Below are positions 10,536 through 28,655 of a stretch of DNA of 48,240 bases, piece after piece. The notes below the pieces were generated by a model that was not told the origin of the DNA, searched no databases, and saw only the letters and a list, made by a program, of their open reading frames with translations. The translations under genes and the position numbers were made by a program. The stretch's first letter is position 1; each line of letters starts with the position of its first letter. This DNA is from Paracoccaceae bacterium. GTDB taxonomy: Bacteria; Pseudomonadota; Alphaproteobacteria; Rhodobacterales; Rhodobacteraceae. The DNA lies in NCBI GenBank assembly GCA_030625695.1, contig DAOUQK010000001.1, forward strand, positions 1-48,240, written 5' to 3'.

Positions 10536-11240
10536 TCAGTGACCGAAATAGGCCTCGGTCAGTTTCGGGTCATCCCGCAGGCTCTCTACTGTCCCTTCGA
10601 TCTGGACTGCCCCCGCTTCCAGCACATAAAGCCGTTCGGCCAAAGTCATGGCGAAATTGGCGTTCTGTTCGGTGATCACAATTGTGGTGCCAAATTCATC
10701 TCGCAAACGACGCAGAACTTCGGCGATCTCAAGACAGACCTTGGGGGCCAGGCCGATGGTGGGTTCATCCACCAAAAGCAACTTTGGACTGGTCATCAGG
10801 GCGCGCCCCAGCGACACCATTTGTCGTTCACCGCCTGATTGGGTCATCGTTTCCTGATTTTCACGTTCTTCCAGACGCGGGAACAACTTGTGCACCATAT
10901 CCAGATTACGTTCGATATCATCGCGCGCGGTATATGCCCCGACCATCAGATTGTCGCGTACCGTCATATACGGGAACAGGTTAAACCGCTCGGTGGCATA
11001 GCCGACTCCAAGCCGGACAATTGCCGGGCTTCCAAGTCCGGTCAGAACGTTATCGCCGAGCTTGATCACCCCGGTGGTTTTGGTCAGCCCCATAATACTG
11101 TCCAAAAGGGTGGATTTTCCCGCGCCATTGGCGCCGACAATGGCGATGATTTCGCCCTGAGCCACCGAGATATTCACCTTGTGCAACGCCTGAGCCTTGC
11201 CATAAAACGCCGACAGGTTTTCGACCGTCAAAAAACCCAT
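10536..11240 (-). CDS. Branched-chain-amino-acid-type (HAAT family) ABC transporter ATP-binding protein, LivF-like
   Basis: 234 aa. Walker A GANGAGKSTLL, signature SGGERQM, Walker B LLLVDEP. A TAATG stop/start overlap joins it to the upstream ATPase gene. Confidence 0.9.
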   Translation of the reverse strand: MGFLTVENLSAFYGKAQALHKVNISVAQGEIIAIVGANGAGKSTLLDSIMGLTKTTGVIKLGDNVLTGLGSPAIVRLGVGYATERFNLFPYMTVRDNLMVGAYTARDDIERNLDMVHKLFPRLEERENQETMTQSGGERQMVSLGRALMTSPKLLLVDEPTIGLAPKVCLEIAEVLRRLRDEFGTTIVITEQNANFAMTLAERLYVLEAGAVQIEGTVESLRDDPKLTEAYFGH

Positions 11241-11971
11241 TACGCGACCCCCAGATACGACGACCGCACGTTCGGGTCACTGATCACGTCGGCATAAGCG
11301 CCTTCAGCGATCTTGCTGCCATAGTTGATGGCGATGGCCCTATCAATCAGCGGCTCCAGCGCCCCAAGGTCATGGGAGACGATCAGAAACGTCATTCCGT
11401 CCCGGCGCATTTGCTGGATCAATTCGCCAATCTGGGATATCTCGCCTTTGGTCAACCCGGCAAACACCTCGTCCAGCAACATCACCGAAGGGCCGGTGGC
11501 CATGGTCCTTGCCATCTCCAACTTGCGCAGGTCGCCCATCGAAAGCTCATCCGGGCGGCGGTTCAGATCGTTTTCGGAGAACCCGACGCTCAGCGCCAGT
11601 TCAATTTCGCGATCGCGGTCCGGCCCTTGGGTTATCATTTTCCAGATGCTGTCAGGCATCAGCCCGACTCGGATGTTTTCCACCACACTCATGTCGCCAA
11701 ACGGGCGCGGCACCTGATAGGTCCGGCTAACCCCGCGCCTGATCCGTGCGGGTGTGCTCAGATCACCAATATCCTCGCCATAAAGGCGGATAGTGCCGGA
11801 ATTCTGGCGCAACTCGCCCATGATCTGCGAAAAAATTGTAGTTTTCCCGGCGCCATTGGGGCCGATCAGTCCAACCGACTGGCCCTGTTCGATATGAAAC
11901 GAAACGTCATCCGTCGCCGTCAGTCCGCCAAAGCGTTTGACCAAATTGGTGATTTCCAAAGGATGGCTCAT
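11240..11971 (-). CDS. HAAT-family ABC transporter ATP-binding protein, LivG-like
   Basis: ORF 11240..12001. The preferred start is ATG 11971, which forms an ATGA overlap with the permease stop. MSHPLEITNLVKRFGG, Walker A GPNGAGKTT, Walker B MLLDEVFAGL. Confidence 0.9.
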   Translation of the reverse strand: MSHPLEITNLVKRFGGLTATDDVSFHIEQGQSVGLIGPNGAGKTTIFSQIMGELRQNSGTIRLYGEDIGDLSTPARIRRGVSRTYQVPRPFGDMSVVENIRVGLMPDSIWKMITQGPDRDREIELALSVGFSENDLNRRPDELSMGDLRKLEMARTMATGPSVMLLDEVFAGLTKGEISQIGELIQQMRRDGMTFLIVSHDLGALEPLIDRAIAINYGSKIAEGAYADVISDPNVRSSYLGVA

Positions 11972-12915
11972 GCGCTTTTCCCCGGTTTGAATCGTTCCCA
12001 TGCCTGCATGACGATGTGGTAGATGCCCTTGGGCTGATACATGTAGAGTAACAAAGCAATGCCGCCATAGATGAAATACCGCTCGGCCCCGGGCAGATAC
12101 GGGCGCAGGTATTCCAATAGATACGTCAGGAAAAATGCGCCCACCATGGGGCCGATGATTGTGGACGATCCGCCAATCAATGCCGCCACAATGATGGTAA
12201 AGACAAAGTTGATATCAAACAGCGCGCGCGGCGCGATGGACCCGAGATAATGCACATAAAACGCGCCCCCCAGCCCGGCGACAAAGGCACCAGTAAGGAA
12301 GGCAAACAGCTTGAGGCGCGTGGTGCTGAGGCCTGAGCCCAACACTGAATCCTCGCTCATGCCAATAGCACTTAGGGCCGTGCCGACCCGTGTGCGCATC
12401 AACAACCACATGGATATTGCCACTGCCAACATCAGTGACAGGGACATGTAATAGCCGTTCACAGCGCCGCGTGTCAGCGTCTGGATGCCCGACATGCCAC
12501 GGGTGCCACCGGTCAGGTCGGGGCGGATCACCTGCACCAGCTGATAGATAAGTTCCATGAACGCCAGTGTCACCAGCGCGAAATAGCTGCCCCTGATACG
12601 CAAGGCTGGCAGGATGAACAACGTGCTGGCGATCATGGTCACGACGACGGCAATGGGGATCGAGATTTCAATCGCCACATCAAACCGCTTGGTCAGGATC
12701 GCCGTGGTATACGCACCGATGCCAATCAGGAACGGGTGACCAAAGCTGATATAGCCTGTACGCCCCGACAGAACATCCCACGAGATTGCAAAGACCGCCA
12801 GAAAGTTGGCGAATATAAACGTGCGCAGCGTGCCTTTACTGACCAGTTCGGGCATGGCGTACATCAACGCGATAAACCCGGCCCACATTGCGAAATGATA
12901 CCAACGCAGACCCAT
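11968..12915 (-). CDS. HAAT-family ABC transporter permease, LivM-like
   Basis: Polytopic membrane protein. The preferred start is ATG 12915, 1 nt after the upstream permease stop. The alternative is TTG 12936. Confidence 0.85.
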   Translation of the reverse strand: MGLRWYHFAMWAGFIALMYAMPELVSKGTLRTFIFANFLAVFAISWDVLSGRTGYISFGHPFLIGIGAYTTAILTKRFDVAIEISIPIAVVVTMIASTLFILPALRIRGSYFALVTLAFMELIYQLVQVIRPDLTGGTRGMSGIQTLTRGAVNGYYMSLSLMLAVAISMWLLMRTRVGTALSAIGMSEDSVLGSGLSTTRLKLFAFLTGAFVAGLGGAFYVHYLGSIAPRALFDINFVFTIIVAALIGGSSTIIGPMVGAFFLTYLLEYLRPYLPGAERYFIYGGIALLLYMYQPKGIYHIVMQAWERFKPGKSA

Positions 12916-12916
12916 G

Positions 12917-13768
12917 TCAAAGCTCCTCCCGGCCAAAAAGCCCTTGCGGACGGATCACCAGAACGCCGATGATCAGCACCATGGTAAACACCCCGCGCAG
13001 TTCTGGTGCGATCATGGCCGTGACGATAATCTCCATGAAACCAATGATATGCGCGACAATCAGCGTGCCTATAATGGACCCGATACCACCAACAATCACA
13101 ATCGCCACCGAGATGATCAGAGGCGCCACCCACATGCTGGGGGTCAACTGAGTGTAACTGGCGAAAAACACCCCGGCCAAAGCACCCAAAGCACCGGATA
13201 TGCCCCAGGTAATCATGTTGATCCGGTCCGAATCAATGCCCGAAATCGCCGCGCCTTTGGCGTCCATCGACACCGCTTGCATGGCCCGCCCGGTGTGGGT
13301 TTTGTTGACGAAGAAATACAGGCTGATCAGGATCGCCCAACTGACAATCGCCGCCAGTAGGTTGGAATATGGAATGGTCGCACCGGCCAATCTTTCGACC
13401 CCGGGAATAATCGGTAGCAGGATTTTGGAACTGTCACCAAACGCCAGAATGACCCCGGATTGCAGCACAATCGCCAGGATCAAAGTGGAAATCTCAATCG
13501 CCACATGGTCGCCCTTGAGCGGTTTGACGATCATCCGATACTTGGCCAAGCCCATAGCTGCGCCAACAATCACCGCCAGCAACACGCCAACCAGTTTGGG
13601 CATGCCCATCATCTGTGCGAAATAGAAATACACATAGCCGCCAATCAGCAGATACGCGCCATAAGCCAGGTTCAGAACGCGACCGATACTGAAGATCAGC
13701 GTGAACCCCATGGCAATCAGCGCATAAAGCCCGCTGAGCAAAAGCCCCTGAATAATAATCTGCGTCAT
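12917..13768 (-). CDS. HAAT-family ABC transporter permease, LivH-like
   Basis: 283 aa. MTQIIIQGLLLSGLYALIAMGFTLIFS is the typical LivH-family N-terminus. Confidence 0.9.
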   Translation of the reverse strand: MTQIIIQGLLLSGLYALIAMGFTLIFSIGRVLNLAYGAYLLIGGYVYFYFAQMMGMPKLVGVLLAVIVGAAMGLAKYRMIVKPLKGDHVAIEISTLILAIVLQSGVILAFGDSSKILLPIIPGVERLAGATIPYSNLLAAIVSWAILISLYFFVNKTHTGRAMQAVSMDAKGAAISGIDSDRINMITWGISGALGALAGVFFASYTQLTPSMWVAPLIISVAIVIVGGIGSIIGTLIVAHIIGFMEIIVTAMIAPELRGVFTMVLIIGVLVIRPQGLFGREEL

Positions 13769-13918: not shown

Positions 13919-15202
13919 TTACTTCTTGACCCAGCTGGGCAGAACAAACTCACCTGTTTTGAACTTGTCAGGATAGACAACGGCGTTTGTGCCGTCTTCA
14001 TACCACTGGATCACCACCATCGAAGGCGCGCCTTCGTCATAAGGCTCGGTGATGTCAAAACGGATGTTGTGCGGATAGGCCCGGCCGGTGCGCGGCTCAA
14101 TCTCGTCATTGCCCCACCAGCCCCAACGCAGCCACATTTCGCCGTCTTTCTTAAAGATATCGTCCTGCTTTTCCATCGCAGGAACCCAGGCATCAAGTTC
14201 AAACCCGCCAGCCTCTTCGGCAGCGGCCATTGCCTGCTTCAACCCGTGATAGGCGTTATAGCCGTTGAAATGCGGGATCGAGGGCCGTGTATCGTAACGT
14301 GCCTGATATTGCGCAAGGAACTCGGCATTGACCGGGTCCAGCGCAAAGCCAAGCGACGGCACCGGCGACAAGGTCGAGATGCCACCACCGGCACCACCTG
14401 TGTCTTCCCAGAACTCATGACCAAGGGCCGCGACATTGACGCCGGTCATGCCCATCGGCACTTGCAGTTTCACATATTGGCTGGAAACCACCTGAGAGTT
14501 GACGGATGAGACGAGATAGATGAAATCCGCGCCCGAGGCTTCGGCTTTGGCGAATATCGGCGCGAAATCATTGGTGGTGATGTCAAACGAAATGATTTCT
14601 GTCACGTCTATGCCGGCATTGGGTGCCAGTGCTTCGGTCACAAGGCCGGTGATCGCGCCGCCAAAGGCAGTGTCTTCGGCCAAAATGACCACCGAGTCCC
14701 AGCCCATCTTTTCCTTAAGAACGTCTTTGCCAAAGTCGATGTAAAGCGTGGCAAGGGCCTCGTCCGAGGCAATGTTCATGAAATAGGGCCGCATCGAATC
14801 ATAATCATCGACAATCATGTCGATGATGCCCACATACGACGTCCATGTATCCAAAGTCGGGATCTGGAATTCCTGCATTCTCGGCAGCCAACCCAAGCTT
14901 ACATCGTCAATCGAGCCGGAAATGATAAAGTCGACCTCTTCGGTCTCGGCCAGAAATTCATAAGCTTTGACGCCTTCGGTCACGTCCTCGCCGGTGTCGG
15001 CCTTGACCAATACAATCTGTTGACCAAGAACGCCGCCTTTGGCGTTCAACTCGTCAATCGCCATCTCGGCACCGCGCAAGGTGCTAAGGCCGGTGTCGGA
15101 TGAAAGCGAGCCGATAAAGCCCACCTTGATCTCGGCTGATGCGGCTGTGGCCATCAGGGCCATGGCCCCCAAAAGCGCAGCACTATTTCTTAGAATTGTC
15201 AT
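13919..15202 (-). CDS. Liv-type (Peripla_BP_6-like) ABC transporter substrate-binding protein, ligand unknown
   Basis: ORF 13919..15289. The preferred start is ATG 15202, with a GGGGGAAATA Shine-Dalgarno sequence upstream. MTILRNSAALLGAMALMATAASA is a signal peptide. The mature part begins EIKVGFIGSLSSDTG. At 427 aa it is longer than a typical LivJ. Confidence 0.85.
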   Translation of the reverse strand: MTILRNSAALLGAMALMATAASAEIKVGFIGSLSSDTGLSTLRGAEMAIDELNAKGGVLGQQIVLVKADTGEDVTEGVKAYEFLAETEEVDFIISGSIDDVSLGWLPRMQEFQIPTLDTWTSYVGIIDMIVDDYDSMRPYFMNIASDEALATLYIDFGKDVLKEKMGWDSVVILAEDTAFGGAITGLVTEALAPNAGIDVTEIISFDITTNDFAPIFAKAEASGADFIYLVSSVNSQVVSSQYVKLQVPMGMTGVNVAALGHEFWEDTGGAGGGISTLSPVPSLGFALDPVNAEFLAQYQARYDTRPSIPHFNGYNAYHGLKQAMAAAEEAGGFELDAWVPAMEKQDDIFKKDGEMWLRWGWWGNDEIEPRTGRAYPHNIRFDITEPYDEGAPSMVVIQWYEDGTNAVVYPDKFKTGEFVLPSWVKK

Positions 15203-15243
15203 TATTTCCCCCTGTTTTGTTGGTTCGATATCTTTTTCGTATC

Positions 15244-15277
15244 CTGTATACAGTACACGAAGGCGGTATTCTGTCAA
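15244..15277 (-). promoter_or_regulatory. Operator/promoter A upstream of the Liv-type transporter genes
   Basis: Palindrome CTGTATACAG (15244-15253); TGTATACAGTA is identical to sites B and C. On the minus strand a -35-like TTGACA (15272-15277) lies 16 nt upstream of TACTGT, which overlaps the palindrome. Confidence 0.55.
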
Positions 15278-15344
15278 CAAGCCTAGCACCTTGGGCCTTC
15301 GAATGCTTGGGAAATCCCATTTGCCGGCTGTGCGGCTTTAGTGG

Positions 15345-15758
15345 TCAGTCAAATTCAATCACGCCTTGTGGGTCGTGAATAATTGCATCGACAGATATTT
15401 CCACCATCATTCCGGGGGTTGTCAGCCCAGCCTCGACCGCCGTTGTGACTGGTAAAATGCCGTCGAACACTTCGCCATGGGCTTTGACAAATCCAGCCGC
15501 TGCGGCCTGCATATCCGAAAGAAACACGGTCGTTCGCACCACATGGCGCATGTCCGCGCCCACCTCTTTCAACGCGTCATCAATCCGCTTTAACGCGAAT
15601 ATTGTCTGCGCATACGCATCATTTGGCGCATGCAGCTTACCGCTTGGTTCTATCGCCGTGGTGCCGGCCACAAACACAAACGGGCCAACCCGCTTGGCCC
15701 GCGCATACGATCCGATTTCTTCAAACCGCCCGCCGGACTGGACAATCCGCAGGGTCAT
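15345..15758 (-). CDS. RidA/YjgF-family (reactive enamine/imine deaminase-like) protein; last gene of the BMC operon
   Basis: 137 aa. Its length and motifs (VFVAGTTAI, VVRTTVFL, VEISVDAI) fit the YjgF/RidA fold. An ATGA overlap joins it to the upstream MDH-like gene. Confidence 0.8.
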   Translation of the reverse strand: MTLRIVQSGGRFEEIGSYARAKRVGPFVFVAGTTAIEPSGKLHAPNDAYAQTIFALKRIDDALKEVGADMRHVVRTTVFLSDMQAAAAGFVKAHGEVFDGILPVTTAVEAGLTTPGMMVEISVDAIIHDPQGVIEFD

Positions 15759-16942
15759 TTCAGGCCCAAACGGACACGAATCGCATCGGCGGCAGCATGC
15801 AGGGCGGCGTGTTCGGTATCGGTAAGGGTCAGTTGTTCCACCTTCACCAGCCCGCTTTGACCCAGATGGGCGGGGACGCCCAGAACCACGCCGTTGACGC
15901 CAAATTCTCCTTCCAACATGACCGATACAGGCACCGGGCCGGTCCGCGCCCCGCGAATATGATCCAGCAATTCGACCGAAGAATGCGCCGGTGCAATCGT
16001 CGCCGACCCGGTCTTGCGCAAGGCAACAACCTGTCCGCCACCAGTGATCGCGTCCTTCACGCAGGCGTCAATCTGCTCTTGCGTAAGGTATATATCCAAC
16101 GGTCGCCCCTTGATGCGCGCATGCGACGGGATTGGCGCCATTTCATCGCCGTGGCTGCCCAGAGTAAACGCAGATACATCGCCCGGATTAACCCCGGCGG
16201 CCTGCGCCAAAGCATTACGGAACCGCGAGGAATCCAGCGTCCCGGCCATGCCCAAAACCCGTTCGCGGGGAAACCCCGTGGCGCGCAGCATTTCGACCGT
16301 CATTTCGTCCAGGGGGTTGGTCACCACAATCACAATCGCCCCGGGGGCCTGCGATTTGATCGCTTCGGCGGTGGAATGGATCACCCGCTTGTTGGTCTCG
16401 ATCAGGTCGGCCCGGGTCATCCCCGGACCGCGGGCGCGCCCCGCTGTCACCACAATGACCTCGGCTCCCGACACCATGTTCAGTGATGTGCCGCCAGTGA
16501 CCCGCGCACGGGTTCGGGTGATGCCGCTGGCGTGGTTGAGGTCCAGCGCGGTCGCTTCGGCGACGCCGGGTGCGATATCAATCAGGGCTATTTCATCGGC
16601 GATATCGGTATTGGCGGCAAGGTGGGCAATGTTGCTGCCAACGCCGCCCGCGCCAACCAGCGCGATTTTACTGAACCGTCTGGCACTTGGGGCTGGTTGT
16701 TTGCCGGGTGCCACCCATTTTGGCGATCGGCGGTAAAGGGCGCGGCGCATTGAGGTGGCACCATCGCTGCGCGCGGGCGTCGGCATTTCCAACGGCCCGT
16801 CCAGCAGTTTGATGCCATTACGTGCCGCCGTCTCAACCGCCAATGCGGTGACGATATCACCGGGTAAGACTTCGAACACCAGACGTCCACGCTGGCGCGC
16901 GTCCTCGATCAATTCCGAGCCTATGACACGCGGTTTGGCCAC
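15755..16942 (-). CDS. LDH-type malate/lactate dehydrogenase paralogue with a roughly 90-aa N-terminal extension
   Basis: Residues from about 92 show KIALVGAGGVGSNIAHL (Rossmann fold), DIAPGVAEATALDLNH and VVTAGRARGPGMTRADL, with Arg at the specificity position as in MDHs. They also show VTNPLDEMT, GMAGTLDSSRFR and LGSHGDEM (catalytic His). Residues 1-91 have no MDH/LDH counterpart. Confidence 0.8.
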   Translation of the reverse strand: MAKPRVIGSELIEDARQRGRLVFEVLPGDIVTALAVETAARNGIKLLDGPLEMPTPARSDGATSMRRALYRRSPKWVAPGKQPAPSARRFSKIALVGAGGVGSNIAHLAANTDIADEIALIDIAPGVAEATALDLNHASGITRTRARVTGGTSLNMVSGAEVIVVTAGRARGPGMTRADLIETNKRVIHSTAEAIKSQAPGAIVIVVTNPLDEMTVEMLRATGFPRERVLGMAGTLDSSRFRNALAQAAGVNPGDVSAFTLGSHGDEMAPIPSHARIKGRPLDIYLTQEQIDACVKDAITGGGQVVALRKTGSATIAPAHSSVELLDHIRGARTGPVPVSVMLEGEFGVNGVVLGVPAHLGQSGLVKVEQLTLTDTEHAALHAAADAIRVRLGLK

Positions 16943-17569
16943 TTAGGCGGCCTTTCCGTCGACCGCTTCAATCGCCGCCACCGCGGCGTCCATCCCGGCC
17001 TTGACTGAATCTTCTGAGCCGGAAATGAACAGGCGGCCATAGCGCCCCACCGCGCGGACCTCGACGATATCGATTTCCGAGGCCTTTTCGGCCTCATTCG
17101 CGGCGATAGAGATATAGGCCGCCGGGGCGCATTCGATGATACCAAGCGTCTGGCCCGGGACCAACAACGCACCCTTGCGCCATTTGTTAAGCAATTGCGC
17201 CTGATAGGGTTCGACCGAAGTGATGATCTGGGTGGTGCCGATATGCGGCTTGATCCGGTCGGCCATGGTAGCACCAAGTTCGTCCAGTATGGCATCCCTT
17301 GCGGCAGACACTTCGGCGTTTGACCGCGAACGAAGGATGAAGAACCCGAATTCCCGTTCCACTAATTGCGTCGTTGCCTCAACCGAACTGGCCTTTAGCG
17401 CCCGGTCAATCAGGGTGAACACACCGTTGCCGGGGGCAAATTCGCCGATCAGCACCGTGTCGCCCGAGAGCGGAACCGAGCCTTGCACGGTCGCGCCGTT
17501 ATAGGCGGCGAACTTGGGCTGCAGATTGTCGATCTGCATCAGGGCACGGATGATTATGTCGCTGCTCAT
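16943..17569 (-). CDS. BMC-T shell protein (tandem, EutL/PduB-like permuted BMC domains)
   Basis: 208 aa, consisting of two BMC-fold halves. The second half, TQIITSVEPYQAQLL...GIIECAPAAYISIAANEAEKASEIDIVEVRAVGRYGRLFISGSEDSVKAGMDAAVAAIE, parallels the EutL pattern (...[23 protein letters not shown]...FLTGSQAA...). Its stop abuts the next start. Confidence 0.8.
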   Translation of the reverse strand: MSSDIIIRALMQIDNLQPKFAAYNGATVQGSVPLSGDTVLIGEFAPGNGVFTLIDRALKASSVEATTQLVEREFGFFILRSRSNAEVSAARDAILDELGATMADRIKPHIGTTQIITSVEPYQAQLLNKWRKGALLVPGQTLGIIECAPAAYISIAANEAEKASEIDIVEVRAVGRYGRLFISGSEDSVKAGMDAAVAAIEAVDGKAA

Positions 17570-17572
17570 GGG

Positions 17573-22065: not shown

Positions 22066-22103
22066 GATGCAACCTCCCAATTGCTTATGGTCTTGCGTTT
22101 AGT

Positions 22104-22138
22104 TGTATTCTGTATACAGTATTCAAAAATACAGTCAA
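22104..22138. promoter_or_regulatory. Operator/promoter B in the divergent region between the BMC operon and the flavoenzyme gene
   Basis: Tandem heptads TGTATTC-TGTATAC-AGTATTC (22104-22124) contain the palindrome CTGTATACAG (22110-22119). On the minus strand a -35-like TTGACT (22133-22138) lies 16 nt upstream of TATACA (22111-22116). Confidence 0.55.
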
Positions 22139-22169
22139 CAGCACCAAAACGACAAGGACGATTTTGATC

Positions 22170-23309
22170 ATGGCACCCAGCAACATCATTGTCGTGGGCG
22201 GTGGTATTGCCGGTACGATGACGGCGCTTGAACTTCAGCGCAAGGGTGAACAGGTGACGCTGATCGACCGGTGGGAACCGGGGCATTCGCGGGCCTCTTC
22301 AACCGATTACAACCGGGTGATCCGGGCGATTTCCGGACGGGACGAATTCTATACCAAATGGGCGCGGGAAAGCCGGTTGCGGTGGTTGGAACTTCAGGCC
22401 GAAAGTGGCCAGAATCTGATGTATGAATGCGGTGCTTTGATCCTGGCCACCGAGGGCCATTGCGATTGGGAAGACGCGACAAGTCAGACCTTCGACAAGC
22501 TTGGCGTGCCTTATTACAAGTATTCGCAGTCGGAAATTCAGCAAAGATTTCCCCAGTTTCGCGTGCCCGACATCGGCTATGCCCTGTTCGAACCCGAGGC
22601 GGGCATGCTGATGGCGCACCGCTGTGTTCTGACCGGGATCGACCTGTTCAAACGCGCGGGCGGCGTGGTGAAACGGGGCCGCGTGACCACCGATGGGTCC
22701 GAGCGGCCGATGCTGGATGGCAAGCTGCTTGAGGCGGATGTTATCATCATCGCCACTGGCCCGTGGATGTCAGATATGTTCCCGCGCACCATTAAGCCGA
22801 TCACCACAGTGATTGGTGTCAATGTGATCTATACCTCGACCCCCGACGGGTCGGACGCATTTGACATGGAAAACATGCCCTGCTGGATTGATCATGGGCG
22901 TAGTTCGTTTGGCCTGCCGTCGTCCGAAGGGTCGGGCGTCAAGGCGGCTGTGGTTATCCCTGACAAGATCGACCTTGATAACGACGAACGCCTGATCCGG
23001 CGTGAATGTCTAAGCCGCACCCGCAGTTATATCGAACACCGCTTCCCGGGGTTGGTGGGCGAAAAGGTGGTAGATTCCAAGTTCAACCAGATCATCCTGA
23101 CGCCAGATACGCATTTCATTGTCGACTGGCACCCCGAGCATGACAATGTTCTTTTCGCGGGGGGCTGTTCCGGGCATCTGTTCAAACACGCGCCCGTATT
23201 CGGCAGCTTTGTGGCCGGGGTCGCGGTTGGGGACTATGGCACGGCCGACCGGTTCAAGGTTGCCAACCGACGCAAACTTAGCCCGAAAGAAAGCCCGTCA
23301 GGACGATAA
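22170..23309 (+). CDS. Monomeric sarcosine-oxidase-like (MSOX/DAO family) FAD-dependent secondary-amine oxidoreductase
   Basis: ORF 22056..23309. The preferred start is ATG 22170, with an AAGGA Shine-Dalgarno sequence upstream. MAPSNIIVVGGGIAGTMTALEL is a GxGxxG motif. GHSRASSTDYNRVIR...RLRWLELQ matches the MSOX/SolA pattern. GGCSGHLFK resembles the region carrying the covalent-flavin Cys in MSOX-type enzymes; that point is tentative. Confidence 0.8.
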   Translation: MAPSNIIVVGGGIAGTMTALELQRKGEQVTLIDRWEPGHSRASSTDYNRVIRAISGRDEFYTKWARESRLRWLELQAESGQNLMYECGALILATEGHCDWEDATSQTFDKLGVPYYKYSQSEIQQRFPQFRVPDIGYALFEPEAGMLMAHRCVLTGIDLFKRAGGVVKRGRVTTDGSERPMLDGKLLEADVIIIATGPWMSDMFPRTIKPITTVIGVNVIYTSTPDGSDAFDMENMPCWIDHGRSSFGLPSSEGSGVKAAVVIPDKIDLDNDERLIRRECLSRTRSYIEHRFPGLVGEKVVDSKFNQIILTPDTHFIVDWHPEHDNVLFAGGCSGHLFKHAPVFGSFVAGVAVGDYGTADRFKVANRRKLSPKESPSGR

Positions 23310-23639
23310 ATCGGCGTAATGTGCCGCGTTCGGGCAGTCATAAGGATCAAACGCGCCTTCATTTCCGGCCAGAAATGCTTTGCATTCCTTGGACTTTTCA
23401 CAGGTTGTACAGGCTAGGACAATCTCTAACGCGCGCCAGCGGGTGGCGTCGATAACTTTGCCGGTGACGCCGAAATGTGCTGCCATCGCCTCCATCTGGT
23501 TACGCACCCCGGGGCGGGCATTGGCAAATGTTGCAATGTCTTCGCGCGATACGGACAGATCGGCGCAAAGCCGGTCGAGTTCCTGCGATGTCAGAATCCT
23601 TTTACGGGCCCTGTCAAACAACCCTAGTAATCCAGTCAT
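23298..23639 (-). CDS. Small Cys-motif protein (DUF6455-like), function unknown
   Basis: 113 aa with a strong AGGAGG Shine-Dalgarno sequence 9 nt upstream. C-x2-C-x5-C-x2-FL...CPN (CTTCEKSKECKAFLAGNEGAFDPYDCPN) matches my recollection of DUF6455 proteins of Rhodobacterales. Its 3' end overlaps the convergent flavoenzyme gene by 12 bp. Confidence 0.6.
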   Translation of the reverse strand: MTGLLGLFDRARKRILTSQELDRLCADLSVSREDIATFANARPGVRNQMEAMAAHFGVTGKVIDATRWRALEIVLACTTCEKSKECKAFLAGNEGAFDPYDCPNAAHYADLSS

Positions 23640-23698: not shown

Positions 23699-24391
23699 TC
23701 AATTTACCGGCGCGCCACGCAGTAATTTAGCCGCTTCCTTGGCCATCAGATCAACCAGCACGTCGCCAGAAACGACAGACGCCAGCCGGTCTTTGGTCTC
23801 GACAGGGGATTGTTGATCGCCTGCGTTTTTTTCAATCGCATGAGTAATAAATGCGCGGGTGAATTCCGGGTGGAATTGCACCGACATGGCCGGGAAATCA
23901 TAGGCCAGAACGCCAAACGGACAATAATCAGCACCGCCCAGAACCCTGGCCCCGGGTGGTACTTTTATCACCTGATCGCGGTGCCAGACATGGGCATCAA
24001 CGTCTTTCCCGTTCACCTTAAAGCGCCGCACGCCAACCACTTCGCCCAAACCGGCCAGTTCTGCCTTGCCGCCATAAACCTCGGCCATGAATTGATGAGC
24101 GAAACAGATACCGAAAACCGGAGCCGCCTGCGCCTTTGCTTCCAGCAAGAAGGTGCGCAAACGCCCCAACCAAGGCATATCATCATAAACGCCCTTCTCG
24201 GACCCACTCAGTACAAATCCGTCAAAATCGCCAACCTGCGGCACCGGCGTGCCAGCCGTTACTTCGATCACCGTCAGTTCATCACCCGGCATCGCCGGGG
24301 CCAGCCATTCGCGGATTGTGCGGCCTACGTGTTTGCCGCCGCCGATGTCTTCGGGCAGGTCGGTCAGGTTCAGGATGGCAATCCTTACCAA
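23699..24391 (-). CDS. Class I glutamine amidotransferase-fold protein (candidate gamma-glutamyl-amide hydrolase)
   Basis: 230 aa. The nucleophile elbow GICFAHQ and the His/Glu pair in QFHPE are present. The TTG start overlaps the upstream stop (GATTGGTAA). Confidence 0.8.
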   Translation of the reverse strand: MVRIAILNLTDLPEDIGGGKHVGRTIREWLAPAMPGDELTVIEVTAGTPVPQVGDFDGFVLSGSEKGVYDDMPWLGRLRTFLLEAKAQAAPVFGICFAHQFMAEVYGGKAELAGLGEVVGVRRFKVNGKDVDAHVWHRDQVIKVPPGARVLGGADYCPFGVLAYDFPAMSVQFHPEFTRAFITHAIEKNAGDQQSPVETKDRLASVVSGDVLVDLMAKEAAKLLRGAPVN

Positions 24392-25806
24392 TCGAACACC
24401 CGGTCAATTCCGGCCATCTTGACGCCAGTAAAGGCTGATGCCTGAAACGACAGCGCGCGCAGGTCTTCGACCTCAAGATTATGCACCGAAGACTTGCCGC
24501 AGGCCTTGGCCAGCGCCGTCATCTCCATGGTCATCGCCGTCAGATACCGCGCCACCCGCTCGGCCCCCGCCGCCGGATTCATGCGTTTTTCCAACTCAGG
24601 ATCCTGCGTTGCAATTCCCACCGGGCAACGCCCGGTATGGCAATGGTGACACGCGCCCGGAGAGGTTCCAAGCGCCTCATAATCCTCAAGATAGCGCGGT
24701 GAATTACACCCCGCCGCAATCATCGCGCCATTGCCGATCATCACTGCATCGGCACCCAGTGCGATGCACTTGGCCGCGTCCACTCCGGTGCGGATACCGC
24801 CCGCAACCACCAGCGTTACCTTGCCCGACATGCCACAGTCATCCAGTGCTTCGCGGCCCGCGCGAATGGCGCTCATGGTTGGCACACCGGTATGGTTCAA
24901 CAGCATCTCGGGCGACGCACCTGTGCCACCTTCGGCCCCATCCAGAACCACCACATCCGCACCCGCCTTGGCCGCAACGGCCACGTCGAACCGGGGGCGG
25001 GTCGCGCCCATCTTGATAAAGATCGGCACCTGGTAATTGGTGGCAATACGTAGTTCTTCGATCTTGACCGCAAGGTCGTCGGCACCCAGGAAATCCGGGT
25101 GACGGATGGTTGATCTTTGATCAACCCCTTCTGGCAAGGTGCGCATTTCAGACACCCTCGGGCTGACCTTCATGCCCAACAGCAAGCCGCCAGTGCCGGG
25201 CTTGGCCCCTTGCCCTACAACAATCTCAATCCCGTCGGCGCGGCGCAGATGGTCCAGATCAACGCCATAACGCGCCGGGGACATCTGATAGACCAGCCGT
25301 TGCGAGGCTTCGCGCTCTTCCTCAAGCATCCCGCCTTCGCCAGTGCAGGTCATTGTGCCCGCTTTGGACGCGCCATAGCCCAAAGACGCCTTGGCTGACG
25401 CCGACAACGCACCAAACGACATCGACGCGATATAGATCGGGATTTTCAACTCGATCGGCTTTTCAACCAAGCCACGTCCACCGCCCAAAATGGTCGTGGT
25501 ATCGCAGGTTTCGCGGTATCCTTCCAACGGCAACCGCGTCATGGTGGCCGGCACAAAGGTCAGATCATCAAACGTCGGCAATTGCTGGTTGAACGAGTTA
25601 TAGCCGCGCACCTGGTAGCGGCCCAATTGCGCCAATGCGTGCACTTCGGCAATCGAATCCGGGTCCCAGCGGGCCGAACCACCCTTGGCATATGATGCGG
25701 GCACCCCGGCGGGGCGGCCCTCAACAGCACCGTCACCAAATTTGATCTCGGCCTCATCGGCCATTTCGAACGGGTATTCATACGGTTTGTTCAGATCATG
25801 AGCCAT
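24385..25806 (-). CDS. FMN-binding glutamate-synthase-domain protein (GlxD/MgsC-like)
   Basis: 473 aa. ASMSFGALS, VVGQGAKPGTGG, VVLDGAEGGTGASP and VVAGGIRTG are hallmarks of the GltS FMN domain. A CHHCHTGRCPVG Cys cluster is also present. Confidence 0.9.
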   Translation of the reverse strand: MAHDLNKPYEYPFEMADEAEIKFGDGAVEGRPAGVPASYAKGGSARWDPDSIAEVHALAQLGRYQVRGYNSFNQQLPTFDDLTFVPATMTRLPLEGYRETCDTTTILGGGRGLVEKPIELKIPIYIASMSFGALSASAKASLGYGASKAGTMTCTGEGGMLEEEREASQRLVYQMSPARYGVDLDHLRRADGIEIVVGQGAKPGTGGLLLGMKVSPRVSEMRTLPEGVDQRSTIRHPDFLGADDLAVKIEELRIATNYQVPIFIKMGATRPRFDVAVAAKAGADVVVLDGAEGGTGASPEMLLNHTGVPTMSAIRAGREALDDCGMSGKVTLVVAGGIRTGVDAAKCIALGADAVMIGNGAMIAAGCNSPRYLEDYEALGTSPGACHHCHTGRCPVGIATQDPELEKRMNPAAGAERVARYLTAMTMEMTALAKACGKSSVHNLEVEDLRALSFQASAFTGVKMAGIDRVFDW

Positions 25807-26483
25807 GCGTTTGCATCCCTGCTTTCAAAATACCAAAGCCGTTGGCCCGAGATCATCTTGCGCCAGTCGCGCGATGTATCCACCAGCCCCAAAGGCTCTA
25901 AAATTGCGTCCACCTCGGCCACTTCTTCGGCGTTCGGTTCAATGGTTTCCACATCGACGCCGACGCTTTCAACCGGGCCGGCAACCCAGACTTCGCCTTG
26001 CCACAAGGCATCCGCACAGCTTTCGCCAGCCCCGCCCAAGGCGATAATCCGCCCGGAATGTGCCATGAAACCGGACTGATAGCCGATTTTTCCTTCGACC
26101 ACGATATTGCCGCCCTTCATCGCCACACCAACCCGCGGGCCGGCGTCTCCTTTGACGTGAATGGTGCCGCCCATCATCGCCGCCCCGCAGGACATGCCGC
26201 AATAGCCACCGACGGTGATCATGCCATCCGACATGCCTTCGCCCAAGGCCCAACCGGCGTTGCGTTCGATATTGATCGTGGCACCTGTGTTCAACCCGCC
26301 GCAGAAATAACCAACCGAGCCTTCGAAATGCAGGTCAGCGCCGGGCGGCAGGCCGATGCCAAGGTTATGGCGCGACAGGGTGTTGGTCACCCGGATTTTG
26401 TCACCGGCTTTGGCCGCTGTCTGCATGTCCTGATTAATCTCGCGGATATGGCGTTGGCTGACGTCGATAATGACTTCACTCAT
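25791..26483 (-). CDS. GXGXG-motif beta-helix protein (glutamate synthase C-terminal-domain-like, GlxC/MgsB-like)
   Basis: 230 aa with repeated Gly-rich turns (GSVGYFCGGL, VGGYCGMSCG, MGGTIHVKGDAG, MKGGNIVVEG). An ATGA overlap joins it to the upstream amidotransferase gene. Confidence 0.85.
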   Translation of the reverse strand: MSEVIIDVSQRHIREINQDMQTAAKAGDKIRVTNTLSRHNLGIGLPPGADLHFEGSVGYFCGGLNTGATINIERNAGWALGEGMSDGMITVGGYCGMSCGAAMMGGTIHVKGDAGPRVGVAMKGGNIVVEGKIGYQSGFMAHSGRIIALGGAGESCADALWQGEVWVAGPVESVGVDVETIEPNAEEVAEVDAILEPLGLVDTSRDWRKMISGQRLWYFESRDANAWLMI

Positions 26484-27424
26484 GCGGCCAGACTCCGGTT
26501 GCCGACGCCCCAGATGCCCATCAGGCTGGGACCGTCGTGATTGATAACATCTTCTTCGCCGGTGAACACACGGCGCACCGCCTGTTCTTCGGTCGCCACT
26601 GCCAGATCGCCATTCTTGTCGATCACCACCAGTGGTTTCATCGCAAACCGGTCTTTGGCAAAGCCAATGCCGTCGGGACGCGCAATCATATAGGTGAACA
26701 CGCCGTCGATTGAGGTGATGGATTTACGCAACGCCTGCTCCATGCTTAGCCCTGCCTTGATCTGGTCCGATACCCAAACCGCAATCAGTTCGGAATCGTT
26801 TTCGGTCAGGAAACGATAGCCCCGCCGCTCCAGCTTGTCCCGCCAGGTAAAATAATCGGTGATCTGGCCGTTATGCACAATCGCCACGTCCGAAAACGGT
26901 CGTGCCCAGAATGGGTGGCTGGCATTGGGCAACACCGAACTTTCCGTAGCCAGCCGCGCATGGCCAAGCCCGTGGGTGCCGATCATGTCGCGCACCCCGT
27001 GTTTGTCAGCCACTTCGACCGCGCTGCCGGTGTCTTTGATGATTTCCAACGACCGCCCGCAGGACTGGATTTCGATCCGGTCGGTCAGAGTGTCGGCGTC
27101 TTTGATCCAAGCGGTCAAGTCACGCGGATCGCTGATTTCCATGCGAAAACAATAATGTGCATTTTGGTCTGTGGTTATCTGTGGCTCGCTCAGAAAATCC
27201 GATCCATGACCCCGCAACACATGGGTAAAACCATCCAGATCACTGTCCATCGACGATTTGTCAAACCCCATGCCGCGTAGGGTGTAGCCGGTTTCGCGGG
27301 GTTCCGTGTAGATCGCAAAACCGGTACTGTCGGCACCACGATGCCTTTGCGCATCCATCAGTTCGACCAAATCGTGCCCGACCTTGCCTGGCGCATTCAA
27401 AATCCGACCAGCGATTCCACACAT
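26480..27424 (-). CDS. Class II (Ntn) glutamine amidotransferase-domain protein (GlxB/MgsA-like)
   Basis: ORF 26480..27493. Starting at ATG 27424 (GAGGGGA Shine-Dalgarno sequence upstream) gives MCGIAGRIL..., with the Ntn nucleophile Cys directly after Met. Confidence 0.85.
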   Translation of the reverse strand: MCGIAGRILNAPGKVGHDLVELMDAQRHRGADSTGFAIYTEPRETGYTLRGMGFDKSSMDSDLDGFTHVLRGHGSDFLSEPQITTDQNAHYCFRMEISDPRDLTAWIKDADTLTDRIEIQSCGRSLEIIKDTGSAVEVADKHGVRDMIGTHGLGHARLATESSVLPNASHPFWARPFSDVAIVHNGQITDYFTWRDKLERRGYRFLTENDSELIAVWVSDQIKAGLSMEQALRKSITSIDGVFTYMIARPDGIGFAKDRFAMKPLVVIDKNGDLAVATEEQAVRRVFTGEEDVINHDGPSLMGIWGVGNRSLAA

Positions 27425-27445
27425 GACATTCCCCTCGAAAGTGTT

Positions 27446-27478
27446 TGTATACAGTATACCGTATTCACTTAAGTTCAA
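27446..27478. promoter_or_regulatory. Operator/promoter C between the GlxBCD-like operon and the GntR gene
   Basis: Tandem heptads TGTATAC-AGTATAC-CGTATTC (27446-27466) contain TGTATACAGTA. On the minus strand a -35-like TTGAAC (27473-27478) lies 16 nt upstream of TACTGT. Extra ATACAG half-sites sit at 27522-27536. Confidence 0.55.
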
Positions 27479-27579
27479 GGCGATTCTTAACAACCTGCTT
27501 TATTGTACTCTGGATTCAGGATACAGAAATACAGAAGACTCTGCAAATTCATGCGCAAATTCACGACAAGAGGCCCGCA

Positions 27580-28242
27580 ATGCCACTTAAAAGCATCCAA
27601 CCCGCCCGCCGCCGTCTGGCTGATGAGGTGTACGAACAGTTGATCGACGCGATCATGCGACGCGAAATTGGGCCGGACGACCATCTGGTGCAGGAAAAGC
27701 TGGCGGCGGAATTACAGATCAGTCGCACGCCGGTGCGCGAGGCGCTGATGCGGCTGGAACAGGACGGTGTGCTGGAAGTGTCCAATCGCGGCAGTTTCCG
27801 GCTTTACCAGATGAACGACGCAGAAATTCGCGAGTTATACCAGGCGCGCGCGGCGGTCGAAGGGCAATCGGCGCGGATCCTCGCCAATGATCCCAAGTCC
27901 GAAGTCATTGCCAAATTGCGCGATTGTGTGCAGCGCGAAGAGAACGTCAGCGACGATTCGGCCAAAGGTTATTTCGAGGCCAACCGCAATATTCACCGCA
28001 AATTCGTCGAACTGGCAGGCAATCGGTTCCTGTTGGAGATGTTTGACATGATCTGGGGCAAGGCCATGGCGTTTCACCTGTTTGCGGCGATCGAAAACGT
28101 CGATCTGTCCAAATCTCTGGGCGCGCATATGGAATTAGTCGATGTGGTCGCCTCGGGCGATAAGGGCGCGGCGCTGGAAGCGTTCACAAACCACATTCAG
28201 GATGGGTTTGATTTGCAGATCGAAGGGCTGAGAGCCGGATGA
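27580..28242 (+). CDS. GntR-family transcriptional regulator (FadR/FCD subfamily)
   Basis: ORF 27445..28242; the preferred start is ATG 27580. The winged HTH is LAAELQISRTPVREALMRLEQDGVLEV, followed by an all-helical C-terminal domain. Confidence 0.9.
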   Translation: MPLKSIQPARRRLADEVYEQLIDAIMRREIGPDDHLVQEKLAAELQISRTPVREALMRLEQDGVLEVSNRGSFRLYQMNDAEIRELYQARAAVEGQSARILANDPKSEVIAKLRDCVQREENVSDDSAKGYFEANRNIHRKFVELAGNRFLLEMFDMIWGKAMAFHLFAAIENVDLSKSLGAHMELVDVVASGDKGAALEAFTNHIQDGFDLQIEGLRAG

Positions 28243-28655
28243 GCACGCCAGTTACACCCGACTACGCGCAAAAAGTTCTGGCCCAGTTCTTCGCCGAATG
28301 GGTGCAGGCGTTGGACCTGACGATCCTGTCCATCGACGCCGACCATGTGCTGGTGCGCATGCCTTTGGGCAAGCATCTGGCGCGGGTGGGCGGCATTGTT
28401 TCAGGTCAGGCGCTGGCGGCGTTGGCCGATACCTCGATGGTGCTGGCGGCCATGGGTCAGTGCGGCGAAGCGCGGGCCTTTGCCACCACTGATCTGCACA
28501 CGCAGTTTTTACGCCCCGGTGTCGGCACGGCGATTCTGTGCCGCGCCCGGGTGGTGCGGGCCGGCAAGGCGCTGGTGTTCACGCAGGCCGACATGACGCA
28601 AGCAGACGACGCCAAACTTGTCGCCACCGCCACCGCGACGTTTTTCGCGCCTTAA
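28239..28655 (+). CDS. PaaI-family hot-dog-fold acyl-CoA thioesterase
   Basis: 138 aa. GGIVSGQALAALADTS and the overall length fit PaaI/4HBT thioesterases. An ATGA overlap joins it to the GntR gene. Confidence 0.8.
   Translation: MSTPVTPDYAQKVLAQFFAEWVQALDLTILSIDADHVLVRMPLGKHLARVGGIVSGQALAALADTSMVLAAMGQCGEARAFATTDLHTQFLRPGVGTAILCRARVVRAGKALVFTQADMTQADDAKLVATATATFFAP

Follow-up and report, generated by a model that had tools for sequence, protein, structure and literature searches.

Among the types in the catalog of bacterial microcompartments (BMCs), MIC2 comprises 22 loci, and both its function and its signature enzyme are given as unknown (Sutter et al. 2021, PMC8217296, Supplementary Data 2). 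Its described features are an aldehyde dehydrogenase (AldDh) without encapsulation peptide, a pfam02866 dehydrogenase with an N-terminal extension of ~70 aa, a protein of the 6-phosphogluconate-dehydrogenase-like superfamily with a short helical N-terminal peptide, and a pfam00120 protein of the glutamine synthetase (GS) family (PMC8217296). The N-terminal extension of the lactate/malate dehydrogenase (LDH/MDH)-family protein is described for both MIC1 and MIC2 (PMC8217296 suppl.). By AldDh phylogeny, the nearest relatives of MIC2 are MIC1 and then RMM1 (PMC8217296), and RMM/AAUM is the nearest characterised one (PMC8217296 suppl.). A 2024 paper lists MIC2 among the types with undetermined NAD+ regeneration (PMC11626177). 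Here we analyse a stretch of 48,240 nt (in the following the window, always meant at its full length) from contig DAOUQK010000001.1 of a Paracoccaceae bacterium, where a shell operon of this type lies within the studied part at 10536-28655. On balance, the locus is probably a MIC2 metabolosome within a GntR-controlled regulon that, by analogy with characterised pathways, would carry a small amino compound via glutamate to an aldehyde and further to acyl-CoA. A short primary amine or an amino alcohol is the likeliest substrate, with ethylamine, ethanolamine, aminopropanol, other short alkylamines and diamines as possible candidates. Full-text literature searches gave no paper that joins a microcompartment with opine dehydrogenase, GmaS/N-methylglutamate-type or gamma-glutamyl genes and no characterisation of MIC2, which is mentioned in the catalog and otherwise in passing. 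The shell type is already catalogued, while its embedding in a conserved, co-regulated gene set for gamma-glutamyl and N-substituted glutamate compounds, and the resulting hypothesis, appear to be new.

Gene calls were based on a listing of open reading frames (ORFs) together with Pfam and NCBIfam profile searches of the window proteins. The studied part contains the following features:

10536-13768, minus strand: LivF, LivG, LivM and LivH of a Liv-type ATP-binding cassette (ABC) importer; LivH and LivM by Pfam BPD_transp_2, LivF and LivG by the Walker A motif in their translations
13919-15205, minus strand: periplasmic substrate-binding protein (SBP) (Pfam Peripla_BP_6, E 7e-38)
15345-15758, minus strand: RidA-family imine/enamine deaminase, last gene of the BMC operon (Pfam Ribonuc_L-PSP, E 8.5e-24)
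15755-16942, minus strand: LDH/MDH-family (MDH-like) enzyme with an N-terminal extension of ~90 aa (Ldh_1_N and Ldh_1_C)
16943-17569, minus strand: BMC-T, tandem permuted, CcmP/CsoS1D-like (Pfam BMC; NCBIfam CcmP, 201 bits)
17573-18955, minus strand: CoA-acylating aldehyde dehydrogenase (ALDH) (TIGR02518, 507 bits)
18955-20148, minus strand: opine dehydrogenase (DH)-like protein of 397 aa (PDB 1bg6, E 2e-15)
20166-20474, minus strand: BMC-H shell hexamer (Pfam BMC, E 1.3e-25)
20495-20770, minus strand: BMC-P shell pentamer, EutN/CcmL (Pfam, E 2.9e-25)
20770-22065, minus strand: GS-like ligase, first gene of the BMC operon (Gln-synt_C, E 7e-91; N-domain without match)
22170-23309, plus strand: MSOX-family flavoprotein, divergent from the GS-like gene (DAO, E 2.7e-41)
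23298-23639, minus strand: DUF6455 small Cys-rich protein, accessory (Pfam, E 1.8e-6)
23699-24391, minus strand: class I GATase-like protein (GATase, E 4.4e-14)
24385-25806, minus strand: FMN Glu_synthase-domain protein, part of a trio (Pfam)
25791-26483, minus strand: GXGXG protein, part of the trio (Pfam)
26480-27424, minus strand: Ntn amidotransferase, part of the trio, begins MCGIAG (Pfam)
27580-28242, plus strand: FCD-type GntR regulator (Pfam GntR and FCD)
28239-28655, plus strand: 4HBT hotdog thioesterase

The BMC operon consists of eight tightly packed minus-strand genes, whose neighbouring starts and stops overlap or lie at most ~20 bp apart, in the order GS-like, BMC-P, BMC-H, opine-DH-like, ALDH, BMC-T, MDH-like and RidA. 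A gap of ~140 bp separates its RidA end from the Liv-type importer. A second minus-strand operon is made up of the Ntn, GXGXG, FMN, class I GATase and DUF6455 genes, and the GntR and thioesterase genes diverge from it. An earlier note on this DNA had already listed the gene set, and every gene it named was found at, or a few codons from, the place it had given. Both the GS-family enzyme at the head of the BMC operon (20770-22065, Gln-synt_C) and the operon from 27424 down to 23298 with Ntn, GXGXG, FMN and class I GATase proteins (Pfam) were as described there. The note was also right that the four-subunit N-methylglutamate dehydrogenase is missing, as neither an MgdABCD-like (SoxBDAG-like) enzyme nor a phosphotransacylase nor an alcohol dehydrogenase was found among the other large window ORFs scanned. 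What it left out were the MDH-like enzyme, the catalogued MIC2 type and the fact that the trio is not universal.

The shell operon of the window matches MIC2 item by item. Its pfam00171 CoA-acylating ALDH of 460 aa has the catalytic domain from the start and no encapsulation peptide, in the pfam02866 enzyme Ldh_1_N begins only at residue 92 of 395, and the opine-DH-fold protein carries a short N-terminal helix (residues 3-15, AlphaFold2 (AF2) model). In addition, a pfam00120 GS-family gene belongs to the locus and heads the operon. The shell is minimal, with a single copy each of BMC-H, BMC-P and a BMC-T of the BMC-Tdp kind, and neither phosphotransacylase nor alcohol dehydrogenase occurs in the scanned window ORFs; CsoS1D_N and BMC domains are seen in the BMC-T orthologues. 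Host groups are the same in the catalog and here, namely Alpha- and Gammaproteobacteria. A locus of Candidatus Rhodobacter oscarellae (L046, assembly LFTY01) is syntenic with the window, its proteins being 50-84% identical, and we take this assembly to be the genome catalogued under the name 'Rhodobacter lobularis'. The catalog labels AIOL_004305 of the latter as MIC2 (PMC8217296). In contrast to the catalog entry, which makes no mention of an MSOX-like oxidase, RidA, Liv-type ABC system, GntR, MgsABC-like trio or operator (PMC8217296), the oxidase, RidA, importer, GntR regulator, trio and operator are added here as conserved partners.

The opine-DH-like protein has hundreds of close homologues, mostly from marine Rhodobacteraceae/Paracoccaceae, from Granulosicoccaceae, from Rhizobiaceae and other Hyphomicrobiales, and from Halioglobus. 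Using it as marker, a scan of one genome per species gave relatives in 151 species, and the best 80 loci were taken with 10-kb flanks and compared with all window proteins by tblastn; all counts cover the loci with enough sequence. Gene order is almost invariant across these 80 loci and is kept between Alpha- and Gammaproteobacteria. ALDH, BMC-T, MDH-like and RidA genes are present in all testable loci (57/57), the SBP gene in 54/57 and the Liv genes in 52-53/57, while the GS-like gene was found in 78/80 and the MSOX-like oxidase gene in 77/80 loci. Thus oxidase, RidA and importer are as much part of MIC2 as the shell. The trio, present in 42/60 testable loci, is a frequent, non-obligatory neighbour of MIC2, and the adjoining GntR gene (38/60), the class I GATase gene (30/60) and the DUF6455 gene (13/60) vary as well. 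No conserved replacement genes occur upstream of the oxidase in the trio-less loci, where the conserved block ends.

Among genes inserted in the conserved block only one pair recurs, in a single subclade, and it is not diagnostic. This planktonic Rhodobacteraceae subclade (L002, L004, L027, L030) carries two paralogous SDR genes at about 5920-6800 and 14760-15600, one at the position of the class I GATase gene and the other between the RidA and SBP genes. The 4HBT thioesterase gene and the flavodoxin-like gene after it recur only in a near-identical metagenome-assembled genome (MAG; L001) among the 80 loci. The thioesterase was considered as the missing CoA-recycling enzyme and was rejected as a conserved part of the locus, since it is confined to the window and this MAG.

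Alignment of the intergenic regions gave a palindrome, ATACTGTATACAG(A/T)ATACA, with the core CTGTATACAG, also given as a TACTGTATACAG core. In the window it forms three sites:

15242-15255: operator site 1, upstream of the ABC importer operon, TACTGTATACAG core; at the same relative position in 39/61 loci by a strict 12-mer pattern
22103-22126: operator site 2, a palindrome of 24 bp in the gap that parts the BMC operon from the divergent oxidase gene; 58/76 loci
27445-27463: operator site 3, with the trio on one side and the GntR gene on the other; 34/42 loci

The longest ORF of the GS-like gene begins at TTG 22080, while a conserved ribosome-binding site (GGGAGG) and the N-termini of orthologues (M-T-S-T-D-F-T-L-P) favour TTG 22065. 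Likewise, the likeliest starts of the SBP and GntR genes are at 15205, not 15289, and at 27580, not 27445. With these three starts, all three operators are intergenic. The pattern occurs in the window at the three promoters only, with 7 overlapping matches against 0.18 expected, a number reached by 0 of 100 shuffles. Throughout the 80 loci (1.47 Mb), 133 of 137 merged sites fall into the three promoter regions. Such a confinement argues for one regulon comprising the importer, oxidase/BMC and trio/GntR promoters. The FCD-type GntR protein is probably the repressor that binds the shared operator, since CTGTATACAG fits the GT-N-AC palindrome that is the usual operator type of the GntR family. 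A lack of co-regulation or of co-conservation between the two operons had been named beforehand as an observation that would speak against an amine pathway. Instead, the same predicted palindromic operator stands at all three promoters and the core genes occur in essentially every testable locus, with the trio in 42/60. Trio-less loci keep the operator at the oxidase/BMC and transporter promoters, and two metagenome contigs (L107, L128) carry GntR and trio with an operator variant and no shell genes within 10 kb. Thus, split arrangements are plausible.

Two further elements were seen near the operators. The intergenic regions between the DAO-family oxidase and GS-like genes of most loci among L002-L031 contain a wider inverted repeat, CCTTGC ... 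GCAAGG, about 45-50 bp apart, that flanks the operator (for example CCTTGCGGAAACTGTATTTATGGATACTGTATACAGAATACAGTTTGATAGCAAGG in L022), and the window holds a degenerate version at 22085-22165 (CCTTGTCG ... ACGCAAGA). Either a further binding site for a protein or a structured leader could account for this repeat. Near the GntR start (e.g., in L006, L009 and L014) lies another element that is operator-like but weaker, GTATACAGAATCCA[T/A]GAATACA, the window version at 27500-27560 being CTGTATTTCTGTATCCTGAATCCAGAGTACA; its position suggests autoregulation.

In the reverse direction, a metagenome scan with the window Ntn protein returned 80 loci. Ntn homologues of at least 78% identity that have enough flank adjoin the oxidase, GS-like and shell genes, with the one exception of the rearranged locus L093, where only BMC-T, MDH-like, RidA and importer were found. 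Two close Ntn homologues obtained by exact-sequence lookup both stand in the order GntR, trio, GATase, oxidase, GS-like, shell. It might be argued that the operons are neighbours by chance or through a shared island history, so that the aldehyde of the shell would be unrelated and the trio would serve a separate nitrogen metabolism. The trio is indeed not within 10 kb in 18/60 loci and is not listed among the MIC2 genes in the BMC catalog (PMC8217296). However, one operator is found at all three promoters and nowhere else, gene order is kept across Alpha- and Gammaproteobacteria, the shell operon includes the trio's GS-like partner, and close trio homologues adjoin MIC2 genes wherever the flank allows, L093 excepted. 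We hold mere neighbourhood to be very unlikely; the arrangement, which recurs in 80 loci of different species with a common operator, is not chance.

Many Ntn homologues at 60-77% identity are shell-less (the module is seen in L106, L122, L134, L140, L141, L147, L149 and L153). Their trio-adjacent GS-like gene is 64-69% identical to that of the window, RidA occurs in about half of them, and the opine-DH-like enzyme is absent. L106 and L134 have an AmaA-like DAO-family oxidase, L140, L141 and L149 a ThiO/SoxB-like one. L106 (2265-15984) furthermore has Liv-type ABC genes of its own, together with a conventional NAD(P)-dependent ALDH most like aminobutyraldehyde dehydrogenases (424 bits), and both L106 and L122 carry the same operator. 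A GS-like/trio module that adjoins DAO-type oxidases and, in L106, also a conventional ALDH fits an amine-to-aldehyde route. In our reading, the GS-like ligase and the trio, usually with a DAO-type oxidase and RidA, form an ancestral cytosolic module that ends in an aldehyde, and MIC2 is the lineage that added a shell, an acylating ALDH, the MDH-like and the opine-DH-like enzyme to it. In L129 (1-12369), the trio module is paired with a microcompartment for a second time, independently of MIC2: here GntR, RidA, a short-chain acyl-CoA synthetase, trio and DAO oxidase lie beside a different, RMM/AAUM-like shell cluster with a class-III aminotransferase fragment, an ALDH, two BMC-T and one BMC-H. 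In two other loci (L115, L145; about 11480-15530 in L115), trio and GS-like gene stand beside a TauD-family dioxygenase, a Rieske oxygenase alpha subunit, an AMP-forming acyl-CoA ligase and HAD hydrolases; apparently, this front end is linked there to another chemistry downstream.

The GS-like protein scores below every equivalog cutoff, namely 236.8 vs 469.6 for type III/GmaS (TIGR03105), 218.8 vs 429 for GlnA and 196 vs 650 for PuuA. Its best PDB match is 5dm3, an uncharacterised GS-like protein (216 bits); GmaS 7cql reaches 141 bits, and GmaS structures rank 14th and lower. The active site was compared with the E. coli GS motif NSYKRLVPGYEAP...RIEVRFPDPAANPY in a manual gapless alignment of 105 sequences. 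Residues that bind metal, ATP and glutamate are kept. In contrast, the flap Glu (Glu327, E. coli numbering) is replaced by an essentially invariant Phe and Asp50' by a highly conserved Ala, so that the FDGSS of GS reads FAIDM. In GS, Asp50' and the flap Glu serve ammonium binding and deprotonation, and GmaS has both changes too (Trp300 and Ala48'; PMC7948447). Since the ammonia-specific residues are lost as in GmaS, an ammonia-assimilating GS is very unlikely. A plain GS at this position had been named in advance as an outcome that would count against an amine route, and both the two residue losses and the GlnA score below cutoff oppose it. The protein is predicted to be a glutamate-amine (gamma-glutamyl) ligase that is not a GmaS orthologue. 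Related gamma-glutamylation routes are those of GlnA4 for ethanolamine, IpuC for isopropylamine and TdnQ/TdnT for aniline.

The trio, with an Ntn GATase that has Cys1, a GXGXG protein and an FMN Glu_synthase protein, has the architecture of the three-subunit N-methylglutamate synthase. The FMN subunit (24385-25806) is by far the most conserved protein of the set, with 83-91% identity vs 58-69% for the opine-DH-like protein, and it is still 76-85% identical in the shell-less relatives. Like the N-methylglutamate (NMG) pathway (GmaS, MgsABC, MgdABCD), the locus thus has a ligase without Asp50' and flap Glu, a three-subunit Ntn/GXGXG/FMN enzyme and a predicted amine-oxidising flavoenzyme. It differs in that the ligase is no GmaS equivalog, a monomeric MSOX-family oxidase stands in place of the four-subunit dehydrogenase, C1 and folate genes are lacking, and the module comes together with a shell, an acylating ALDH, an MDH-like and an opine-DH-like enzyme, RidA and an ABC importer. 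The NMG-type signature proposed in the earlier note therefore stands for the synthase architecture, but not for the ligase as a GmaS equivalog.

One might consequently think of an ordinary methylamine (N-methylglutamate) pathway whose formaldehyde is trapped in the shell as formyl-CoA. A GS-like ligase with an MgsABC-like trio is the signature of that pathway, some trio orthologues are named methylamine-glutamate N-methyltransferase (in part as subunit A) by JGI, and MSOX-family enzymes typically free formaldehyde, which is toxic, from N-methyl groups. However, the GS-like protein stays far under the GmaS cutoff (236.8 vs 469.6) and is nearer to other GS-like structures, and the window holds no MgdABCD, folate-linked or formyl-CoA-handling genes. 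Moreover, the ALDH is closest to acetaldehyde-specific enzymes, and a short-chain acyl-CoA synthetase nearby in L129 (with its different BMC) and in L115 as well as the conventional ALDH of L106 point to products of C2 or longer. Methylamine is thus a very unlikely substrate of this route, and a larger amine or amino alcohol is preferred.

The oxidase aligns over its full length to MSOX (PDB 1el5, E 5e-34) with ~30% identity. As a member of the MSOX/N-methyltryptophan oxidase family it keeps MSOX R49, R52, H345 and K348, including the substrate-carboxylate ligands R52 and K348, while the covalent-FAD residue Cys315 is replaced by Asn and His269 is missing. It scores 190 bits vs a cutoff of 257 for MTOX and lies under the SoxA cutoff as well. 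The Cys of its GGCSGH motif was considered as a flavinylation site and rejected, because this position corresponds to Phe342 in MSOX. The enzyme is predicted to be an FAD-dependent N-substituted amino acid oxidase of the MSOX family. The class I GATase-like protein reaches 107 bits vs a cutoff of 205 for PRK09065 and gives no match to the PuuD model, and its orthologues show a faint Peptidase_C26 signal only; we predict it to be an accessory gamma-glutamyl-amide hydrolase.

These proteins also recall the Puu pathway, with which the locus has in common a predicted ATP-dependent gamma-glutamylation by a GS-like enzyme, besides an oxidase of the DAO family, an aldehyde dehydrogenase and a hydrolase of the class I GATase type. 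In a pathway of this type, a gamma-glutamylated diamine, polyamine or amino alcohol would be oxidised distally to a gamma-glutamyl-aldehyde for the ALDH, and the GATase or Ntn protein would free glutamate, so that no N-substituted glutamate would be the precursor of the aldehyde. The four genes outline PuuA/B/C/D, the ALDH of the shell-less locus L106 is most like aminobutyraldehyde dehydrogenases (424 bits), and the two extra SDR genes of the planktonic subclade would suit an alcohol-oxidation step. In contrast to the Puu pathway, however, the locus has a CoA-acylating ALDH and the trio, its GATase is optional (only half of the loci have it), and the equivalog thresholds are missed (PuuA 196 vs 650, PuuC 31.7 vs 850), so that the Puu echo heard in the earlier note holds for the outline of gene families and fails for PuuA, PuuC and PuuD equivalogs. 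The oxidase belongs to the MSOX family, which acts on N-substituted amino acids, and has kept the carboxylate-binding Arg and Lys. The trio would have no role in a Puu-type route, yet its FMN subunit (83-91% identity) is the most conserved part, and a gamma-glutamyl-aldehyde would be bulky for shell pores. A Puu-type route is therefore unlikely in our view.

The opine-DH-like protein matches CENDH (1bg6) with E 2e-15 (profile E 6e-18) at 23% identity. In its AF2 model (pTM 0.80), the N-terminal helix 3-15 and a disordered linker precede a Rossmann fold. Foldseek matches are full length (E 2.5e-21 to 1e-11; TM 0.73/0.82 to 1bg6) and led by CENDH and octopine, yersinopine, pseudopaline and staphylopine DH, followed by ketopantoate reductases. 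Thus it resembles opine dehydrogenases (CENDH 1bg6, octopine DH 3c7a, staphylopine/pseudopaline/yersinopine DH) in its whole-length fold and the Rossmann GxGxxG, but differs from them by an invariant Glu for the catalytic His, by the helix and by the apparent lack of an acidic residue at strand beta-2. Its score of 23.2 for Pfam Octopine_DH (PF02317) stays below the gathering score of 30, and the label of a functional opine dehydrogenase was rejected because the canonical catalytic residues are not conserved. That the locus holds two enzymes from families that make or break secondary-amine C-N bonds is consequently true of the opine-DH fold and of the full-length likeness to MSOX, and untrue of the opine-DH Pfam score and catalytic His. 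The amphipathic helix, the linker and the residues M1, F5 and F8, which are invariant among homologues, fit an encapsulation peptide (EP). The stop of the gene overlaps the start of the ALDH gene, and the two are translationally coupled. By our own reading against the Rossmann pattern, strand beta-2 appears to end without an acidic residue (residues 54-61, VTLFSAYG, mostly invariant), whereas NAD-dependent relatives carry an Asp there. The protein may therefore use NADP(H) or bind its cofactor differently.

Two enzymes from families that act on N-substituted amino acids could also mean that the nutrient itself is a secondary-amine amino acid (opine-like or N-alkyl) or a gamma-glutamyl amide from algae or invertebrates. 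It would be imported by the Liv-type system and cleaved by the MSOX-like and opine-DH-like enzymes, while the GS-like ligase and the trio would merely capture or recycle the amine and nitrogen thus set free. The ligands that Liv-type binding proteins favour are amino-acid-like, and the hosts are marine and often associated with animals or algae, such as sponge and coral Ruegeria and Ca. Rhodobacter oscarellae. However, the GS-like gene heads the shell operon and is universal (78/80), which would be odd for a side reaction, the shell-less relatives keep GS-like ligase, trio and oxidase without the opine-DH-like enzyme, and the latter lacks the canonical catalytic His. We accord this explanation little probability and retain the amine or amino alcohol as the imported substrate.

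The ALDH comes nearest to the acetylating acetaldehyde dehydrogenases (TIGR02518 507 bits, PDB 5j78 433 and 3k9d 400; SauS 309 bits) and keeps the catalytic Cys (motif GTACVSEQ). This likeness is suggestive of a small aldehyde only, and it is consistent with the proposal of the earlier note that an acylating ALDH traps an aldehyde of C2 or longer. The MDH-like enzyme passes the NCBIfam malate dehydrogenase subfamily cutoff (314.9 bits vs 283). As read from its sequence, its catalytic set is intact, with the R102-type loop GRARGPGMTR, D168/R171 and the H195 motif, and it is likely the NAD+ recycler inside the shell. In the same way, an LDH/MDH-family protein is proposed as NAD+ recycler in the PVM BMC of Planctomycetes/Verrucomicrobia for fucose and rhamnose, where it is the sole candidate beside the acylating ALDH (PMC4207490). 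Unlike this locus, PVM has a class II aldolase as signature enzyme, a sugar-phosphate substrate and a phosphotransacylase. RMM/AAUM, which serves 1-amino-2-propanol or aminoacetone in Mycobacterium, shares with the locus, as read here, an amine-derived aldehyde, an acylating ALDH, BMC-Tdp, GntR and independence from B12 and glycyl radicals. However, RMM makes its aldehyde by a kinase and a class-III aminotransferase-type phospholyase, and it has no glutamylation, trio, opine-DH-like or MDH-like enzyme. A feeding of the metabolosome without B12 or glycyl radicals, as put forward in the earlier note, is thus proposed here as well but not unique, since PVM, RMM/AAUM, SPU and ARO already work this way (PMC8217296, PMC4207490). 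An attempt to name the substrate from the binding protein failed, as no close solved or curated relative of the SBP was found.

Gene content, synteny, the shared operator and the family memberships are observed, and from them the following route, in which every chemical step and the identity of the amine are conjectural, can be drawn up for an amine or amino alcohol. The Liv-type ABC system would import the substrate, as its co-conservation and the shared operator suggest. Going by family chemistry and the GmaS-like residue losses, the GS-like ligase would use ATP to couple the amine to the gamma-carboxyl of glutamate, and the trio, in analogy to N-methylglutamate synthase, might shift it to the alpha position and thereby yield an N-substituted glutamate. 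The MSOX-family oxidase, in place of MgdABCD, would oxidise the N-alkyl C-N bond to glutamate and aldehyde, a role that other DAO subtypes might play in the shell-less relatives, and RidA would clear imine and enamine intermediates. In the shell, the CoA-acylating ALDH would turn the aldehyde into acyl-CoA, while the encapsulated MDH-type enzyme would re-oxidise NADH and might in this way form an oxaloacetate/malate shuttle. As an optional safety valve, the class I GATase might hydrolyse excess gamma-glutamyl amide. The opine-DH-fold protein, which belongs to the shelled version only, could be either an encapsulated aldehyde-releasing enzyme or an NAD(P)H-linked imine/secondary-amine oxidoreductase for redox balance. 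Alternatively, it might run reductively (2-oxo acid, amine and NAD(P)H) as a cofactor sink or as a trio-independent route to N-substituted glutamate.

Several points weigh against this route. All of its chemical steps are proposed by analogy, and the site of aldehyde release is its weak point: the oxidase appears untargeted, and the opine-DH-like protein appears targeted but is without the catalytic His. If MgdABCD and the shell-less relatives are taken as models, the aldehyde should come from the flavin oxidase. However, it has neither an N- nor a C-terminal extension and thus no encapsulation peptide, so that its aldehyde would arise outside the shell unless the enzyme is recruited otherwise. 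It would also produce H2O2, and neither a catalase nor a peroxidase turned up among the conserved genes, where no dedicated search was made. In the opine-DH-like protein, the catalytic His (His202 of CENDH, His212 of octopine DH (OcDH)) corresponds to the invariant Glu231, the Arg/Asp partners of this His are not cleanly aligned, and Arg292 is replaced by Asn or Lys. Classical opine-DH chemistry on an N-alkylglutamate would moreover give 2-oxoglutarate and the amine, not an aldehyde. The cleavage of an N-alkylglutamate within the shell by one of these two enzymes, as put forward in the earlier note, thus finds no support here. Since Liv-type binding proteins usually take amino acids or amides, the imported compound may not be a simple amine. 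Trio and GntR gene are not within 10 kb in 18/60 testable loci, the class I GATase gene is present in only half of them (30/60), and the scanned window ORFs contain no phosphotransacylase, which leaves the fate of acyl-CoA and the recycling of CoA unexplained.

One might speculate further that MIC2 represents a new metabolosome class, in which an encapsulated opine-DH-fold enzyme with Glu for His would release the aldehyde inside the shell from an N-substituted glutamate supplied by the gamma-glutamyl ligase and the MgsABC-like synthase, and an encapsulated MDH, in place of an alcohol dehydrogenase, would regenerate NAD+ through an oxaloacetate/malate shuttle across the shell. We consider this bolder version rather unlikely. 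If it were true, the new class would occur widely among marine Rhodobacterales, Rhizobiales and Granulosicoccaceae, where it would act as a sink for short-chain amines and amino alcohols.

MIC2 is one of many catalogued types without known substrate or signature enzyme, and it now gains a short list of testable items, i.e., amines, three enzymes and one repressor. The function of a microcompartment type that occurs in 151 species or more, most of them marine bacteria, can thereby be tested directly. If the proposed route from amine via glutamate to acyl-CoA is true, glutamate-tagged amines would join the few known ways of feeding a metabolosome, the shell-less relatives would show how a cytosolic pathway was upgraded with a shell, and abundant marine bacteria would possess a route for the turnover of short-chain amines and amino alcohols. 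In addition, the pair of operator and GntR protein could serve as an inducible switch for shell expression.

Outside the conserved block, the window holds several neighbours. The thioesterase gene is followed at 28998-29639 by a flavodoxin-like FMN reductase and at 29648-30034 by a second RidA paralogue, both of which recur only in the MAG L001. A separate catabolic cluster at 30193-41921 encodes an NMT1-type ABC importer (30193-33028), a 5'-nucleotidase-like protein, a creatininase-family amidohydrolase (34893-35696), an amidohydrolase, a FAD_binding_4 oxidase, an FAA-hydrolase-family protein, a dihydroxy-acid/6-phosphogluconate dehydratase and a 3-hydroxyisobutyrate-DH-like reductase. At the other end, a DAO-family flavoprotein with a C-terminal BFD-like [2Fe-2S] domain (518-1960, minus strand) lies beside genes of a TRAP transporter (3509-6107) and has no relation to the conserved block.

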